Shown here: positions 11,201 to 20,402 of the stretch, piece after piece
Numbering within the stretch: position 1 is the first letter of the stretch
Layout of the letters: each line of letters opens with the position of its first letter
UHGV virus genome: UHGV-0127437
Reading direction: 5' to 3' (one strand)
Length of the DNA stretch: 51,462 nt
Origin: a virus
Position numbers and translations under genes: made by a program
The notes under the pieces: model-generated
What the model was told of the DNA's origin: nothing
The model's input: only the letters and a program-made list of their open reading frames with translations
The model's database searches: none

Positions 11201-11661
11201 GCTTCCGGCCACTCCCTGTTAAGTGCAATATCGATGATGCTGCTGTTGATGATGTAATCCGGGAACTCAGCCCAGCCATCGCCGAGGACGGGTCGAGTCC
11301 ACAGCTCAAGCGTCGCGGAGAACTGCCAGTAAATCGGGGCGACCAGCGTCGGCCCCTGATAGATGTCCGTAAACCGACATTTGTAGAGTTCAACGCCCAG
11401 CGGCGTTTGCAACCGCATAAAAAACCAGTCGGCGCCGTCAGTGATGGTTTCGTGATACCAGCCCTCAAAAAGCTGAGCCTGAGCATCGTTTTCGAAAAAC
11501 CACTGCACATTTGCCTGTGTCGGTGTCGAAATAAACGCGCGGCGCTGACGGGCGCGGCCGGTGGTCATTTCGGTGCGCTTTAACGGACTGACTGGCTGAA
11601 ATGCATAACCGTCCTGAAGCGGCATAGGGAGATAATCGTGAGGGTAGTATTTTTCAGCCAT
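11197..11661 (-). CDS. Minor tail protein (gpM-like position)
   Basis: 154-aa ORF, ATG overlapping tape measure stop (ATGA). Confidence 0.5.
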   Translation of the reverse strand: MAEKYYPHDYLPMPLQDGYAFQPVSPLKRTEMTTGRARQRRAFISTPTQANVQWFFENDAQAQLFEGWYHETITDGADWFFMRLQTPLGVELYKCRFTDIYQGPTLVAPIYWQFSATLELWTRPVLGDGWAEFPDYIINSSIIDIALNREWPEA

Positions 11662-14600
11662 CAGGTCGTTCTCCTTCCGGTGTACGTTCCTCGCATTGCG
11701 TTACCCACTTTCCCGTTACCCCGGACAATCTGGTTCGCCACCTGATCAACTGCGTCCGTCGTCGCCTTTTTGGCGGTGTTGGCGAGAGACATATCCATCT
11801 GCTCAGGCGTTACACCCTGCTGAATATGGAAGTCCTGCTGAATCTGGGGGCTGAATACAGTTGAATTACTGTTGTTATTGACGTTCTGCGCCCCCGTACC
11901 GAAACCGGGCTTGCTCAGCGTTGCATCCAGAGAACCACCATTGCGCAGCGCCTCAAGGTTCGAGACGCCTATCCGGTTGGTTGCAGCCTGGTCAAAAACA
12001 TACTCGCCTTTATGCACTATCCCGGCGGGCTGGTATTTCCCTCCTGGGCCAGTGTAACCACCATTAGCGAAGCCTGCGCCAGCAGTCATGGCTGATGAAG
12101 CAGCGGCAACTGCCGCAATTAAAGGAGTGGTTGCGGCCTCTGCTGCGGCCATCGCAGCTGGAGCTATTGCCCATCCCGTAATAGGGATCGCAGCCGCAGA
12201 AGCATATGCGTTAATTGCTGCAATCTGTGACATTGCGGTTGCTTGTCCGATCATTGATGCAGACGCGCCAGCCGCTGCCGTTTTTCCTACAAGCAATTGA
12301 ACAGCCTGATACACCAGCCACTGCGCCGCCATCTTCGTCAGCGCATCAATAACAGCTTCACCCATTCCTGTTGCCATGTTTTTAAATCCATCACTCAAAC
12401 TTTCCGTTCCATGCACCATCGCTGAAAGATTGGATGAAATGGCGGTTTCAGTGGAGTTTAGAATTGATGTTGCTGCTGTAGTAACTGATTCATAAAGTGT
12501 TGGGACACTGTTCAGATATGACTGCAACCCATTTTGAACACCTAACTGCCAGTTACCATTCAGTTGATCCAACTGAGTGTAATAGGATTGCTGCATGGCA
12601 AGGCGCTGATTGAGAGCCTGCTGTAGAGCGGCGGTTTCCTGGTCGTATAAGTTTTGCGAGATCTGCCCGGTCGTTCTCTGATTGGTTAATTCGACCTGCT
12701 TTTTTTGGTACTCACTGACGATTTTTGTCAGTTCCTGCTGACGTTTCTGCTCCTGAGAAAGCACCGTGTTGCTATTAAGGCTATTTTGTAGCCCTGTAGC
12801 ATCATTTTGCAGACCAGAAGAAAGCGTATTTTTATACGCTGTCAACTTATCAACATCTTTACGGAGCGCTATCTCCTTTTCGATAGCTGCGTTTTTCTGC
12901 AATTGAGCAGTAATAGCCTCCTGATTAGCCAGTAGGGATTTCTGATCAGCAGTCAAAGTTTTCTTCGATTTAATATCAGAAAGTTGTTGCTCCCATTTAA
13001 TAAGAGCTTGTTGCGCAGAACCTATTTTCTCTGTTGTGTCGAACTGTGAGGTTAAAGTAACGTACTGCTGGTTTAACTGATCCAGCATCCTCACGCCAGC
13101 ATTCTCGGTATATGCTTTACCTTTAGGTGTTTTTGGGGTTTTGGGATCCTTGTATCTATCGTTGATATTTTTCCGTAAACGAGCCTCTTCTTCCTTGCTG
13201 ATTACTGCACCATCTTTAATTGCTTTGGTTAGCTTGTCCTGTTCCTTTTTTCTTTTCTGCTCATTAGACAACGTCTGCTCAGTAAGTGAATTAATAACTT
13301 TCTGGGCCTCAATACTTTTTTGCTGGCGTTGGTTGTATCCATCAATTGTATTGTTAATTACGTCCTGCGCCGTTTTTTCACTTTGCAGTGTAGATAACCG
13401 CTGTTTAAGCAAAGTTACCGCTTTTCGCTGCCGATCTAAATCATCAGATTTCCATGCACCATAGGGACCTGCATTAGCGGCCTGTCCACGCTCCAAATCA
13501 GCAAGCGATTTCTGTGCGCGTTCAAGCTCGCTGCTGGCATCCTGAATTTTTTGCTCTACGGATGCTTCACGACCAACATCAAGCATGGCATCCCACGCCC
13601 ATCCAGCAGCTTTAGCCAGTGAGTTCCATGCGGTTTCCAGATACCCCAGATTTTCCTTAATCTGATTGGAGCGCTGAATCATCGACGAAGAATATGCTTC
13701 GCTGGCAACGCGCGCGGCTTCCTGCTGATTCCCTTCATCCTGAAGAGCTTTAATCTGGTTGTATGTTGCCAACGTAAGGAAGTGATACTGGTCGTTCAGT
13801 TTGGTGATGGCATCCAGAGGGTCCGCGGCGATTTTGTTGAAATCGTCCACCAGTTTATCTGTCGCAATACCTGTGGCTTCGCTCGTTTTAACAACGGCAG
13901 TTGTCACGCGCTCCAGCGAATCACCGACCACCTTTCCAGACTCCACCAGTAAATTTAACGTCGATGCCGCTTTGCCAGTGGTAGAGTTCGCCGCCATACC
14001 AGCGCGCGCAGCAATATCCGCCAGTTGCCCCGATGTTTTCCCTACCTGATTACCCGTCAGGATAAGTGATTTATTGAAAGCGTCCTGCTCCTGCGTGCCT
14101 TTGTAGTACGCCACGCCCAGCACGCCGACCGCGGCAGCCGCCAGCGTGAAAGGATTGATCAGGCCCATCACATAGGAGCCAACCCCTTTAATCGCCGGGC
14201 CGATACCGCCGAACATGTCCTTTAACTGGCCTCCCTGCTGCATCAGCACCATAAACGGACTTTGCCCGGTAGACAGACCCACGACGATATCGGTCATCTG
14301 AGCGGGCAGTATGCGCATCGCAAAAGCGGTTTGCTTTGCTGACATGCCAGTATTTTTCAGTTGCTCTGAAAACCCGGTGAGACGATTACGAGCCTCTTCG
14401 ATTTTTTTCGAATAGACATCAAAGGTCTCATCGTCCAGCATGCCTTTCGACTTGAATTTCGCGAGTTGTTGCTGTTGTTTATCCAGTTTATTCAGAGCCG
14501 CGTTAACTGGATCAATGCGGTCAAGCAGTTCCGATAATGCGGAAGATTCTTCCTCGGTGGCTTTAGTCACCTTCCCGGCACTGGCCGCTGCTTTCTGCCC

Positions 14601-14702
14601 CCACTCGGTAAGCCCGTGAAGGGCGCTGGTCAGGCTTTCAGCATTTTTTTCTGCGCCGGTGCTGTCAATAATGACGGCGAGGCGGGATGTCTGTTCTGCC
14701 AT
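11661..14702 (-). CDS. Tail tape measure protein
   Basis: 1013-aa ORF, long coiled-coil/Q- and A-rich regions, hydrophobic Gly/Ala-rich segment, located after G/T chaperone genes. Confidence 0.8.
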   Translation of the reverse strand: MAEQTSRLAVIIDSTGAEKNAESLTSALHGLTEWGQKAAASAGKVTKATEEESSALSELLDRIDPVNAALNKLDKQQQQLAKFKSKGMLDDETFDVYSKKIEEARNRLTGFSEQLKNTGMSAKQTAFAMRILPAQMTDIVVGLSTGQSPFMVLMQQGGQLKDMFGGIGPAIKGVGSYVMGLINPFTLAAAAVGVLGVAYYKGTQEQDAFNKSLILTGNQVGKTSGQLADIAARAGMAANSTTGKAASTLNLLVESGKVVGDSLERVTTAVVKTSEATGIATDKLVDDFNKIAADPLDAITKLNDQYHFLTLATYNQIKALQDEGNQQEAARVASEAYSSSMIQRSNQIKENLGYLETAWNSLAKAAGWAWDAMLDVGREASVEQKIQDASSELERAQKSLADLERGQAANAGPYGAWKSDDLDRQRKAVTLLKQRLSTLQSEKTAQDVINNTIDGYNQRQQKSIEAQKVINSLTEQTLSNEQKRKKEQDKLTKAIKDGAVISKEEEARLRKNINDRYKDPKTPKTPKGKAYTENAGVRMLDQLNQQYVTLTSQFDTTEKIGSAQQALIKWEQQLSDIKSKKTLTADQKSLLANQEAITAQLQKNAAIEKEIALRKDVDKLTAYKNTLSSGLQNDATGLQNSLNSNTVLSQEQKRQQELTKIVSEYQKKQVELTNQRTTGQISQNLYDQETAALQQALNQRLAMQQSYYTQLDQLNGNWQLGVQNGLQSYLNSVPTLYESVTTAATSILNSTETAISSNLSAMVHGTESLSDGFKNMATGMGEAVIDALTKMAAQWLVYQAVQLLVGKTAAAGASASMIGQATAMSQIAAINAYASAAAIPITGWAIAPAAMAAAEAATTPLIAAVAAASSAMTAGAGFANGGYTGPGGKYQPAGIVHKGEYVFDQAATNRIGVSNLEALRNGGSLDATLSKPGFGTGAQNVNNNSNSTVFSPQIQQDFHIQQGVTPEQMDMSLANTAKKATTDAVDQVANQIVRGNGKVGNAMRGTYTGRRTT

Positions 14703-14741
14703 TGCGGTCTCCGGGCATAAAAATACCCGGACATACCGGGC

Positions 14742-14972
14742 TTATTGTTTCTGTTTGCCGTGTTTTTTCTGTTCCTGCGCCCACTGCTCACGCCATGCGT
14801 CATCGAGGGCAAATATCGCCGCGTCAAATTCATCACGATCAATGAGGACGGGACGTGCAGAAAGAAAGCGCTCAATATCATGAAGCGATATCGGCAGCGG
14901 CGCGCCAGCCATCCCGGCATATAGCCGGGAGCGGGAAATAACGGAGTAAGCGTTGAGAATTTCCCCTGTCAC
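14742..14972 (-). CDS. Tail assembly chaperone, frameshift-extension segment (gpT-like)
   Basis: Small ORF in -1 frame relative to upstream chaperone; frame open upstream through candidate slippery sites; immediately precedes tape measure gene. Confidence 0.5.
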   Translation of the reverse strand: MTGEILNAYSVISRSRLYAGMAGAPLPISLHDIERFLSARPVLIDRDEFDAAIFALDDAWREQWAQEQKKHGKQKQ

Positions 14973-15061
14973 ACCATCAATTTCAGGCTCTGGGATTGGC
15001 GGGAGTTTTAATTTCTCCCTTCGCCACTTTGCCTTTTCGCCCTGCTCCCCGCCGAACTCGC

Positions 15062-15529
15062 TCAGCCACTTCTGCGCTTCGATGGCTTTTTTACGGTTTC
15101 CTGCTTTTGCTGCTCTTTTCCCTGGGCGATGCTGGCGGCTTCAGCCAGAATTTGCCAGTAAATCGCTGGTTCCTGTTTCATAAGTGCAGCACCGCGTTCC
15201 GGCGTGTATTCGATCGGCACCTCTTCGCCATCAACAAGCTCACCAACACCCTTCCAGTCTTTCAGCAGGTAACGCGCGCAGTTATCGATCAGCAGGTCAT
15301 CAGCAGAGTCAATTTCCCCAACCGCTGACAAGCTAAATTCACTGGTTCCAACCTGGTAACTGGCATCCATCTTTTCAATATGGCGGCGGATAAGGGCATT
15401 ACGTGAGCGGTACTGGTCGTTATCAATGCTGCTGACGAGCAATTTCAGCCCTTCAATGGGTTTAAGGTCTTTCAGCGGTGTAAACCAGCGCTCGCCGCCA
15501 ACATCAATTCGTGGGTTTAGGATAATCAT
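15062..15529 (-). CDS. Tail assembly chaperone (gpG-like)
   Basis: ORF between major tail and tape measure genes; ATG at 15529 with AGGAG RBS; 3' end contains G_GGA_AAA and A_AAA_AAG slippery heptamers. Confidence 0.55.
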   Translation of the reverse strand: MIILNPRIDVGGERWFTPLKDLKPIEGLKLLVSSIDNDQYRSRNALIRRHIEKMDASYQVGTSEFSLSAVGEIDSADDLLIDNCARYLLKDWKGVGELVDGEEVPIEYTPERGAALMKQEPAIYWQILAEAASIAQGKEQQKQETVKKPSKRRSG

Positions 15530-15591
15530 TCGAAACTCCTGCATGAAAAAAGCCCGCGCCGCCATGCAGAGCGGAACGGGCAAGGGAAATT

Positions 15592-16752
15592 TTATGGTTC
15601 AGTTACGGTAATGGTTGCCGTATCGGTAAAAGTGCGCGCCTTAGCGGTGATAGTTGCCGTTCCGGCCGCAACACCAGTAACGACGCCTGACGCACTAACT
15701 GTTGCCACTTCAGGATCGGATGACTCCCACGTAACAGTATCCGTTGCGCCTGCGGGAGCCAGCGTTGCAGTGAGGCTGGTTGTATCGCCCACATCAACGG
15801 AAGCTGTTTCCGGGGTTACCGTGATGCCGGTTGCTGGAATGGTAACGGCGCGGGTAATGGTCGGTGACTCGTCGGCCGCAGTGATATCCAGTTGAACCTG
15901 GATAATGTCGGTATTGCCCCCATCCGGCCAGTCGCCTGCGACCTGCACTTTCGGGAAGTTAAATGTGTATTGCCCTTCGTCATTCGCCAGCGTGAAACTG
16001 AATGGCACGGTTGCACCGGTAAGTGTTTTGCTCCAGACCTCCCACGCAGCTTTAGACCATGACAATGTGATCGAACCTGACGGCGTAAAGGTGGTTGGGA
16101 TATTAGCCCCGGCATAGGGTGAACCGGTGCCGATGCAACGCTGGGTCTGGACGTTGTTGTCGAACTGGATGTTGAAGGTATCAATACAGAAGCCATCACC
16201 ACCGTCGATTCCGTTCAGGTTTATCGCAGTGACCTCTTTGAACGAGTAACGCAGTTCTCCAGCATTATCTGCGGGAGTACCGGTGATGTAACTCGTATCA
16301 TCTGCTTTTGAGCCCCAGCCCAGCCCGGCGAATGTGACTGTCGCGGTAACGTCGCCATCATTCGGGACCTCTAACTGGAACACGCTTACCTGCGCGCCAC
16401 GAATAATAGAGGCAATGCCAACGTCCGAAGCGTATGTTGCGAGTGAGAAAGAGATACGGTCATTCCCCATCGTCAGCACGTTGCCCGCCCACTCCGCGCC
16501 AAAGCACGAAGCCAGGAAGTCATCATGCTGGCCGTAGCGGAACTTTGCCCCGACATCGCCACCTACATCGACCGTTCCCAGCGTAGCGCCCTGTGCCATT
16601 CGGGTACCGCCGATTTCGTCGTTGTCATTGGTATTCTGGGATGGACCAACGCCCCAGCTTGTACGCTTGAAAAGATTCCAGACGCCTGCAGGCGTAATTC
16701 CTGGAGTCGTCTCCCGGATAAAGGCCGAGAGTACCTTAGCGCCGCTCGACAT
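15592..16752 (-). CDS. Major tail protein with C-terminal Ig-like (Big_2-type) domain
   Basis: 386-aa ORF, ATG start; C-terminal segment TVTPETASVDVGDTTSLTATLAPAGATDTVTWESSDPEVATVS...TATITAKA typical of bacterial Ig-like domain decorations on siphovirus major tail proteins. Confidence 0.7.
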   Translation of the reverse strand: MSSGAKVLSAFIRETTPGITPAGVWNLFKRTSWGVGPSQNTNDNDEIGGTRMAQGATLGTVDVGGDVGAKFRYGQHDDFLASCFGAEWAGNVLTMGNDRISFSLATYASDVGIASIIRGAQVSVFQLEVPNDGDVTATVTFAGLGWGSKADDTSYITGTPADNAGELRYSFKEVTAINLNGIDGGDGFCIDTFNIQFDNNVQTQRCIGTGSPYAGANIPTTFTPSGSITLSWSKAAWEVWSKTLTGATVPFSFTLANDEGQYTFNFPKVQVAGDWPDGGNTDIIQVQLDITAADESPTITRAVTIPATGITVTPETASVDVGDTTSLTATLAPAGATDTVTWESSDPEVATVSASGVVTGVAAGTATITAKARTFTDTATITVTEP

Positions 16753-18954: not shown

Positions 18955-19218
<264 letters not shown>

Positions 19219-19265
19219 AAGCCCTCCAAAGGAAAAGGGGCCGAAGCCCCTTGTGTGTGATGGTG

Positions 19266-20402
19266 TTAGCCCAGAAGCATTACTGCGTGGGCTGGTTTGA
19301 TGGAAGCCACGCCCCACGCCAGGCCAACTTCATAACGCACCTGACGGTACTGACGATACAGCGCGATCTGGAAGGTGATACCGGAAACTGGGTCGGTGAC
19401 ATTCATCACGTCATCAGCGGTGTCACCACCTTCCGGCATCGCCGGGGTACGAGAAGCCAGCAGAAATGCGTTGCGGTCAAACGCCATATTTGCAGTGAAA
19501 CCACCGACTACAGTGATAGCAACGCCGTCTGCCAGGTCCTGACGCAGCCCCGGTGCTGCCAGGGTGATAGTGGTAGCGGTCGCAGCAGCAACGACATACT
19601 GGTTATCGTCACCAGCGAAAGTCACAAGCTGGCCCGCAGCAATAGCACCCGTGCCGGTATCAATGGCAATAAGGATATCGCCTTCGGACTTGGCGCCATT
19701 CACCAGGTAACCAGCAGCTGTAGCGGCAGCAGCGCGCTTAACTCCAGCAGAACTGTGGATATTGAAGCCCTGCAGACGCCCCAGAACACCCTCACGCAGC
19801 AATTGTTCAGTCCCGGCTTCATTGACTTTGAACAGAACCGATTGCTTACCACGCATGTTGGCAATGGCGTCAGAATCAAGAACCATCTGCAGGTTAGTCG
19901 TCGGAGAGCCATTTTGTTCCAGAACTTTTCGGGTGTTTGCCGCGTCGGAAAGATCATCTTTGATGCCAAACGGGGTAGTGCCAGCAGTACCAACAGCGCG
20001 TGATGTACCGTAATAAAGTGCCCCCAGATCGGAGTCAACTTCGTTAGACAACGCGCGGAATGCCTGGGTGAACTGGTCGGCTAGGATAGTGTTGTAAGTA
20101 CCTGCCGGGCCGAGAGCCAGTTGTTCTTCACCGTTCCATTTGACCGGTGCCATTTTGGATTTGGTAATTTTTACATCGACAGTGCCAATGTTCTGATCAC
20201 CAGTATTCGGCGCAGACGGCCCCGGTACGATATCCTCGGTAACTGCTTCCGGTGCGACCGGCGCAGTTACTGTCTGCCCCTTCGCCGCTGCGTCTGCTTT
20301 GGTATTGCGCGCGACGGCAGGAATAAACCCCACCTGCTCACGAGAAACGATATCCAGAGCGGTATAGATAGTCGGGATCAACCCGGTCAGTGTATTCGAC
20401 AT
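19266..20402 (-). CDS. Major capsid protein
   Basis: 378-aa ORF, ATG start, position downstream of scaffold-like gene and upstream of an attenuating hairpin; Ala/Gly/Thr-rich composition typical of coat proteins. Confidence 0.6.
   Translation of the reverse strand: MSNTLTGLIPTIYTALDIVSREQVGFIPAVARNTKADAAAKGQTVTAPVAPEAVTEDIVPGPSAPNTGDQNIGTVDVKITKSKMAPVKWNGEEQLALGPAGTYNTILADQFTQAFRALSNEVDSDLGALYYGTSRAVGTAGTTPFGIKDDLSDAANTRKVLEQNGSPTTNLQMVLDSDAIANMRGKQSVLFKVNEAGTEQLLREGVLGRLQGFNIHSSAGVKRAAAATAAGYLVNGAKSEGDILIAIDTGTGAIAAGQLVTFAGDDNQYVVAAATATTITLAAPGLRQDLADGVAITVVGGFTANMAFDRNAFLLASRTPAMPEGGDTADDVMNVTDPVSGITFQIALYRQYRQVRYEVGLAWGVASIKPAHAVMLLG

Follow-up and report, generated by a model that had tools for sequence, protein, structure and literature searches.

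Between the tail tube gene and the tape measure gene of the virus genome UHGV-0127437 lies a small gene for a tail assembly chaperone, and its 3' end overlaps a second open reading frame (ORF) that is displaced into the -1 frame. The question raised by this locus is whether the two frames give two separate proteins or whether some ribosomes change frame near the end of the first one and fuse the two, as for G and GT of phage lambda. The stretch analysed, called the window here, comprises 51,462 nucleotides (nt), and all features described in it are on its minus strand. Comparison of sequences supports, with high confidence, programmed -1 ribosomal frameshifting like that of lambda G/GT; the gene concerned codes for a chaperone of the YdaY family and belongs to a siphovirus prophage of Citrobacter type. 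An earlier note on this DNA had suggested such a fusion directly upstream of the tape measure gene; the suggestion is supported by the gene order, by a conserved extension that lacks a start codon and by a conserved slippery site in the correct register.

Overlapping frames and slippery heptamers

The G-like tail assembly chaperone ORF (15062-15529, minus strand) gives a zero-frame product of 155 amino acids (aa), ending at the TGA stop 15064-15062. ATG 15529 is its most plausible start, and an AGGAG Shine-Dalgarno (SD) sequence can be read 6 nt 5' of it (15536-15540), while a mechanical ORF list begins instead at TTG 15583. The -1 frame is interrupted by 16 stops over the ORF's first 387 nt. 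The final one, TGA 15145-15143, is followed by 133 open codons, to TAA 14744-14742. A -1 shift anywhere in the overlap between that stop and the stop of G (15062-15142) gives a fusion. Two slippery heptamers, G_GGA_AAA (15122-15116, codons Q-G-K) and A_AAA_AAG (15092-15086, codons GTA AAA AAG for V146 K147 K148), had been named in the earlier note, and both were found there in X_XXY_YYZ register relative to ATG 15529. The note was also right that the -1 frame, open from 15142, runs from both sites into the downstream ORF 14742-14972, and that this ORF would otherwise start with GTG, for GTG 14972 is the first ATG, GTG or TTG in the mechanical ORF list for this frame.

The two frames can be joined in a simple scheme, in which most ribosomes would read the zero frame to TGA 15064-15062 and produce the 155-aa chaperone "G". 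A minority would slip on A_AAA_AAG, where the lysyl-tRNAs on AAA in the P site and AAG in the A site would re-pair one base back on AAA AAA. Reading would then continue from GCC (15086-15084) ATC GAA through the 114 codons of the T-like extension (14742-15086) to TAA 14744-14742, so that a "GT" protein of 262 aa is predicted, with the junction ...QETVKK/AIEAQKW (the slash marks the change of frame). Peptides predicted from the start-less part of the -1 frame are AIEAQK, WLSEFGGEQGEK and LPPIPEPEIDGVTGEILNAYSVISR, and TVKKAIE would be the peptide across the A_AAA_AAG junction. The predicted masses are 17 kDa for G and ~29 kDa for GT. At 15062-15085, this Citrobacter lineage has TCG where most relatives stop after the heptamer (CCA TAG); this lengthens G by six residues (...KKPSKRRSG) and makes the overlap past the slip 24 nt long, versus 6 nt elsewhere.

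A heptamer by itself is weakly significant and insufficient as evidence. The window contains 44 canonical heptamers in register in about 14,700 codons of 52 putative genes, or about 1 per 335 codons, so that about 0.08 is expected in the 27-codon overlap. The case rises above chance because of the gene context and the conservation in relatives. Two overlapping ORFs lie on one strand between the tube gene and the tape measure gene; the downstream one is in the shifted frame, overlaps the 3' end of G and has no credible start of its own; a conserved in-register slippery sequence lies within the overlap; and the stretch of the shifted frame that lacks a start is itself coding sequence. Furthermore, only the sites in the chaperone ORF give a product longer than that of the zero frame, with 114-124 further codons after a shift versus 8-18 left without it.

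Profile searches also join the two frames. G matches phrog_313, "tail assembly chaperone", at profile positions 22-154 of 258 (155 bits, E 6e-45), and the -1-frame extension matches phrog_1189, of unknown function (E 1.6e-33). When the two were fused in silico at A_AAA_AAG, phrog_313 was matched in a single stretch over positions 22-254 of 258 (161 bits, E 7.5e-47). As the profile is 258 positions long, fusions may have been deposited for some members elsewhere.

Conservation of the site and of the -1 frame

A megablast search of the phage collection returned no relatives, which emerged only with blastn and tblastn. The first collection comprised 88 loci from viral and genome contigs, those of Citrobacter type at 93-100% aa identity and those of E. 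coli, Shigella and E. ruysiae at about 78%. Many of them are near-identical prophages, and about 46-54 sequences are unique, in roughly seven clades. The open -1 frame and a slippery site at this position, for which related loci were examined, are both kept across clades. In 88/88 loci A_AAA_AAG stands at equal offset and in the same register; the expectation that heptamers would be conserved in related phages was thereby borne out for A_AAA_AAG and failed for G_GGA_AAA, found in only about a dozen. When 50,697 phage records were searched by tblastn with the fusion, 28 matched, and 27 of these have it in two pieces, that is, in two frames.

The homologous position is occupied by A_AAA_AAG in Citrobacter, E. 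coli and Shigella, by A_AAA_AAG CCA TAG in Klebsiella phages, Salmonella phage SPF_0923 and E. coli phages, and by A_AAA_AAG in Providencia rettgeri, at 50% aa identity and with a frame overlap of only 16 nt. Pantoea agglomerans has G_GGA_AAG, the lambda heptamer; Erwinia phage Gungnir39 has GCA_AAG_TAA; and Pseudomonas syringae phages, at 33% identity, have G_GAA_AAG GCC. The upstream half of the site has been swapped between forms among clades, and GCA_AAG_TAA and G_GAA_AAG are non-canonical and presumably slippery. Because the Pantoea, Erwinia and Pseudomonas variants all keep A_AAG at the homologous position, a putative lysine slip core A_AAG, after which the -1 frame has a codon for Ala or Val, is universal across clades.

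The same constraint was observed in the codons. Among 46 unique G ORFs only 12/155 third codon positions are invariant; codon 148 is AAG in 46/46, and codon 147 is AAA in 44/46, the two exceptions being the Pantoea and Erwinia alternatives. Around the slip site, synonymous variation is suppressed over fusion codons 132-151 (15078-15136), where the fraction of synonymous differences is 0.127 versus 0.378 outside for twofold-degenerate codons and 0.32 versus 0.62 for four- and sixfold-degenerate ones (column-level Mann-Whitney p = 7.6e-6, the sequences compared being related).

Both heptamers had been offered as candidate slip sites. Use of G_GGA_AAA, as the slip site or as a second contributor, would give the junction ...IAQGK/RAAKAGNRKKAIEAQKW, marked by peptides of the AQGKRAAKAGNR type and the sequence RAAKAGNR; it has the correct register and an open -1 frame in the window, and it is measurably shifty in E. 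coli with a stimulator. This alternative is nevertheless unlikely. The glycine codon on which the heptamer depends wobbles among the 46 unique ORFs (Gly137 is GGA in 9, GGT in 16, GGC in 16 and GGG in 3). Where the overlap measures only 34 nt or 16 nt, as it does in the E. coli, Klebsiella and Providencia clades, the heptamer falls outside the open part of the -1 frame; in the commonest E. coli arrangement that frame opens 34 nt before the stop of G, past the heptamer's position. Since G_GGA_AAA lies upstream of the -1-frame stop in many relatives, no fusion could arise from it there. A fusion at this heptamer also scores lower on phrog_313, at 147 bits versus 161.

Published shift rates point the same way. 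The most efficient heptamers in E. coli were C_CCA_AAG, G_GGA_AAG and A_AAA_AAG, with A_AAG by far the best tetramer (Sharma et al. 2014, PMC4066793). A_AAA_AAG gave 0.29% shifting without a stimulator, 4.3% with IS911 stimulators and 39% with the IS3 pseudoknot; G_GGA_AAG gave 0.28%, 3.8% and 43%; and G_GGA_AAA gave 0.12%, 0.51% and 17%, which is 2.5 to 8 times less than A_AAA_AAG (PMC4066793 Table S3). The in-phase z scores in E. coli genes were -10.1, -2.0 and +5.6 in that order, so that A_AAA_AAG is avoided and G_GGA_AAA is not (PMC4066793). These rates fit the comparative result, in which A_AAA_AAG would be the designed site and G_GGA_AAA a tolerated, weakly shifty codon variant. A_AAA_AAG 15092-15086, the conserved heptamer, is almost certainly the functional slip site, and G_GGA_AAA, a non-conserved synonymous Gly variant, is probably incidental or minor, giving at most a minor second product in this phage.

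Known sites of transcriptional slippage in bacteria are runs of about 9 or more identical bases. The slip site here holds a homopolymeric A6 run on which RNA polymerase rather than the ribosome might change the frame, and a genome with an extra A in the run does give an in-frame fusion, but this explanation is very improbable. The two-frame layout is kept with much shorter A runs, namely GGGAAAG in Pantoea, GCAAAG in Erwinia and GGAAAAG in Pseudomonas phages, and such short runs therefore fit re-pairing of tRNA-Lys and not polymerase slippage.

Two relatives carry the two frames joined. The genome with the extra A is that of Providencia stuartii (CP114582.1, locus L097, about 1347-2115), where the in-frame protein has the junction ETIKK/VIEAQKW, matching the predicted ETVKK/AIEAQKW; the extra A is either a mutation or a homopolymer sequencing error. 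In an E. coli protein of 240 aa (P0001), an in-frame deletion joins ILAEA of the zero frame to GYDKK of the -1 frame. Both are constitutive GT fusions, natural or artefactual; if real, only GT would be made, presumably in tail-defective prophages.

After the slip follow 38 codons of the -1 frame (14973-15086) without ATG, GTG or TTG, conserved as protein. Variable columns at codon positions 1, 2 and 3 number 19, 21 and 37 of 38, and when synonymous and nonsynonymous codon differences from the window are counted, the E. coli clade has a ratio of 20:7, Klebsiella ratios of 15:4 and 16:4, and Erwinia one of 14:13. This pattern is that of purifying selection acting on the stretch in the -1 frame, with a constraint at least equal to that on the rest of T. 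If no frameshift occurred, the downstream ORF 14972-14742 would be made alone from GTG 14972 as a protein of 76 aa, and such a GTG-initiated ORF does exist and public records annotate short separate ORFs. That reading is scarcely probable, since the 38 codons 5' of GTG 14972 are under strong purifying selection as protein and yet lack a start. The first possible start in relatives lies 27, 32, 38, 40, 43, 48, 58 or 80 codons past the slip, which argues that no initiation site is conserved, and public annotations place the start of the downstream ORF inconsistently. Neither is an AGGAGG-like sequence seen by eye upstream of GTG 14972, and the phrog_313 profile covers both parts as one protein.

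It might further be supposed that the heptamers arose by chance in a decaying prophage and that the -1 ORF is a relic without a product. The density of in-register heptamers in the window and the truncated T frames found in some related loci (L067, L069, L082) speak for this, but site, register and -1 coding constraint are conserved over about seven clades, down to 33% aa identity, and in phages that have been isolated and propagate, among them Erwinia phage Gungnir39 and those of Klebsiella and Pseudomonas. Chance and decay are thus hardly credible.

Known systems, stimulators and protein family

G/GT frameshifting is widely conserved in long-tailed phages (PMC5009743), and the lambda case is that of Levin, Hendrix & Casjens 1993 and Xu, Hendrix & Duda 2004, 2013 and 2014, as summarised in PMC5009743. 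The present pair resembles lambda G/GT in its position between the major tail and tape measure genes and in similar product sizes, and in the Pantoea relative the lambda heptamer G_GGA_AAG itself takes the place of A_AAA_AAG. It differs in using A_AAA_AAG where lambda has G_GGA_AAG, and in showing no detectable homology to gpG or gpT. The sequences themselves show the anatomy of the locus, its gene context, the conservation of the slip site and the coding constraint on the start-less stretch; that the fusion is actually made, its frequency and the protein interactions are inferred. If the lambda model holds here, the tape measure protein would be coated or bound by G and by the G portion of GT, with the T portion recruiting or binding the tail tube protein; the G:GT ratio would follow from a fixed slip frequency, and neither G nor GT would end in the virion (PMC5009743). 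The lambda ratio is about 30:1 (PMC5009743).

A second comparison is offered by ECs_1801, a Phage_TAC_1 chaperone of the HK97 gp10 type from a lambdoid prophage of E. coli O157 Sakai, listed in cluster A_AAA_AAG_25 and marked "true" (PMC4066793 Table S4). There, too, A_AAA_AAG stands at the very end of the chaperone ORF (AGA AAA AAG TAG), directly 5' of the tape measure gene; however, the chaperone studied here belongs to phrog_313 / PF27119, and by sequence ECs_1801 probably lies outside that family (BLASTP E = 1.5).

The gamma/tau gene dnaX of E. coli shares the identical heptamer A_AAA_AAG and the re-pairing of tRNA-Lys. In dnaX, an SD-like element about 10 nt upstream and a strong downstream stem-loop accompany about 50% shifting, which gives the shorter product. 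The locus described here differs in that no downstream structure was found, only a doubtful AGGA 6 nt upstream, and in that its shifted product is the longer one. The full pair of flanking stimulators of the dnaX type, a downstream stem-loop with an upstream SD-like element, was not found. The lambda slip site, too, is not known to need a downstream RNA structure.

Several observations weigh against programmed frameshifting at this site. A_AAA_AAG occurs in register three times in the window, and two of these sites lie inside the tape measure gene, where they are presumably functionless. The counts of related loci overstate the independent observations because so many are near-identical prophages, and the synonymous dip is driven mainly by the Citrobacter, E. 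coli and Klebsiella comparisons. Without stimulators, A_AAA_AAG shifted at about 0.3% in one E. coli reporter context (PMC4066793). When the 103 nt from the heptamer were folded, the result was no more stable than for shuffled sequences (z = -0.62), and folding an alignment of eight clades produced only 4 pairs, none of them covarying, at -1.2 kcal/mol; a downstream stimulator was rejected because neither the single sequence nor the alignment yielded a structure. As for the tape measure sites (13245-13251 and 12699-12705), a -1 shift there ends after 9 and 48 codons; they are probably an incidental result of Lys-rich sequence, and, if shifty, would give a truncated tape measure protein.

Upstream of the heptamer, AGGA (15099-15102) is a candidate SD-like stimulator. 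The Citrobacter, E. coli, Klebsiella and Pantoea (GAGGA) clades have this element, Providencia and Erwinia lack it, and it doubles as code for a conserved Gln-Glu/Asp, which confounds any stimulator role. The synonymous suppression reaches about 15 codons upstream of the heptamer (15136-15093). Because of this upstream extent, together with the lack of downstream structure, it may tentatively be suggested, with doubt prevailing, that the family uses an unrecognised 5' stimulatory element, either AGGA at its unusually short spacing of 6 nt or another signal in the mRNA or nascent chain that would tune the G:GT ratio.

PF27119 Phage_YdaY is carried by all 91 homologues according to database-precomputed assignments; this model is absent from the local Pfam copy. 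The local Pfam-A at E <= 0.01 gave no family for the G or the T part, including no TAC or tail_T, and an NCBIfam scan gave no match for the fusion, G or T. Matches were thus found to the phrog_313 and PF27119 profiles and not to the Pfam models of lambda gpG and gpT, and by these profile searches the chaperone pair is a separate family, phrog_313 / PF27119 Phage_YdaY, without detectable sequence homology to lambda gpG/gpT. An AlphaFold (AF2) model of G reached a predicted local distance difference test score (pLDDT) of 78, and Foldseek with this model retrieved predicted phage tail assembly and tape measure chaperones (E 5e-5 to 1e-2, template modelling score, TM, about 0.5). A sequence search of the PDB returned a single proteasome match at E 0.21, judged spurious.

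Genomic setting and the YdaY family

The gene pair is flanked upstream by the tail tube (major tail) protein gene with a C-terminal immunoglobulin (Ig)-like domain (15592-16752; Pfam Phage_tube_2 5.6e-30, Big_2 1.5e-17), and downstream by the gene of a lambda-type tape measure protein of 1013 aa (11661-14702; Pfam TMP_2 5.4e-82; TMP_4, Tape_meas_lam_C; phrog_24). The nearest loci, either identical or at 93-99% identity, come from viral contigs and from Citrobacter genomes (C. amalonaticus, C. youngae, C. pasteurii, C. sedlakii), and the window is, judging from these matches, most likely a Citrobacter siphovirus prophage.

Terminator-like sites were also seen near the pair. A hairpin with a T run, GCCCGGTATGTCCGGGT+ATTTTTAT, lies at 14725-14741 between the T stop and the tape measure start, and a weaker one at 15553-15570 between the tail tube gene and the chaperone start; in 14500-15800, 6 such sites were found versus 1.9 expected. 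The hairpins near the chaperone may be attenuators in the late operon. Elsewhere, a 120-aa ORF (18955-19317), placed between head-tail connector-like genes and a major capsid-like gene, contains a perfect (EQ)n run, QEQEQEQEQEQEQEQEQEQ, coded by a GAGCAG hexamer repeat, which may be a length-variable linker.

Relatives of the chaperone pair were found in 1071/5426 complete E. coli genomes, and also in Citrobacter, Klebsiella, Salmonella, Providencia, Pantoea, Erwinia and Pseudomonas phages. Among them is ydaY of the Rac prophage in E. coli K-12, a homologue at about 70% DNA identity with ATA_AAA_AAG_CCA_TAG and an intact 113-codon -1 extension, for which the fusion junction QDTIKK/AIAAQR is predicted. 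Unlike the gene described here, it is an N-terminally truncated remnant in a defective prophage, beside the truncated tape measure gene ynaA. In K-12 MG1655 (NZ_CP169634.1, locus L100, 2496-3163) it bears no annotation beyond "protein YdaY", and its -1 ORF bears none. A suggestion separate from the 5' element and just as tentative is that K-12 Rac ydaY is a still-functional frameshift cassette, with its -1 product unannotated. In full-length prophages (locus L101, 2461-3230), the RefSeq "YdaY" has a K-12-like internal start (119 aa), whereas the ORF is open for about 30 codons further upstream (149 aa); the internal start looks like an artefact of annotation propagation.

In the public records inspected, no joined coding sequence and no ribosomal slippage was annotated, and the two frames are entered as "hypothetical" or "YdaY" ORFs with no relation to each other; a search of the literature for "YdaY" brought up no relevant paper. 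The mechanism is already known, and the new part is an apparently unannotated member in the YdaY family. In conclusion, the main value of the finding lies in annotation, with the existing picture of tail assembly and frameshifting unchanged: recognising the putative frameshift would assign a function to the YdaY family as the tail assembly chaperone G and to phrog_1189 as its T extension, and the family allows slip sites that replace one another at a single homologous position to be compared in a clean series.

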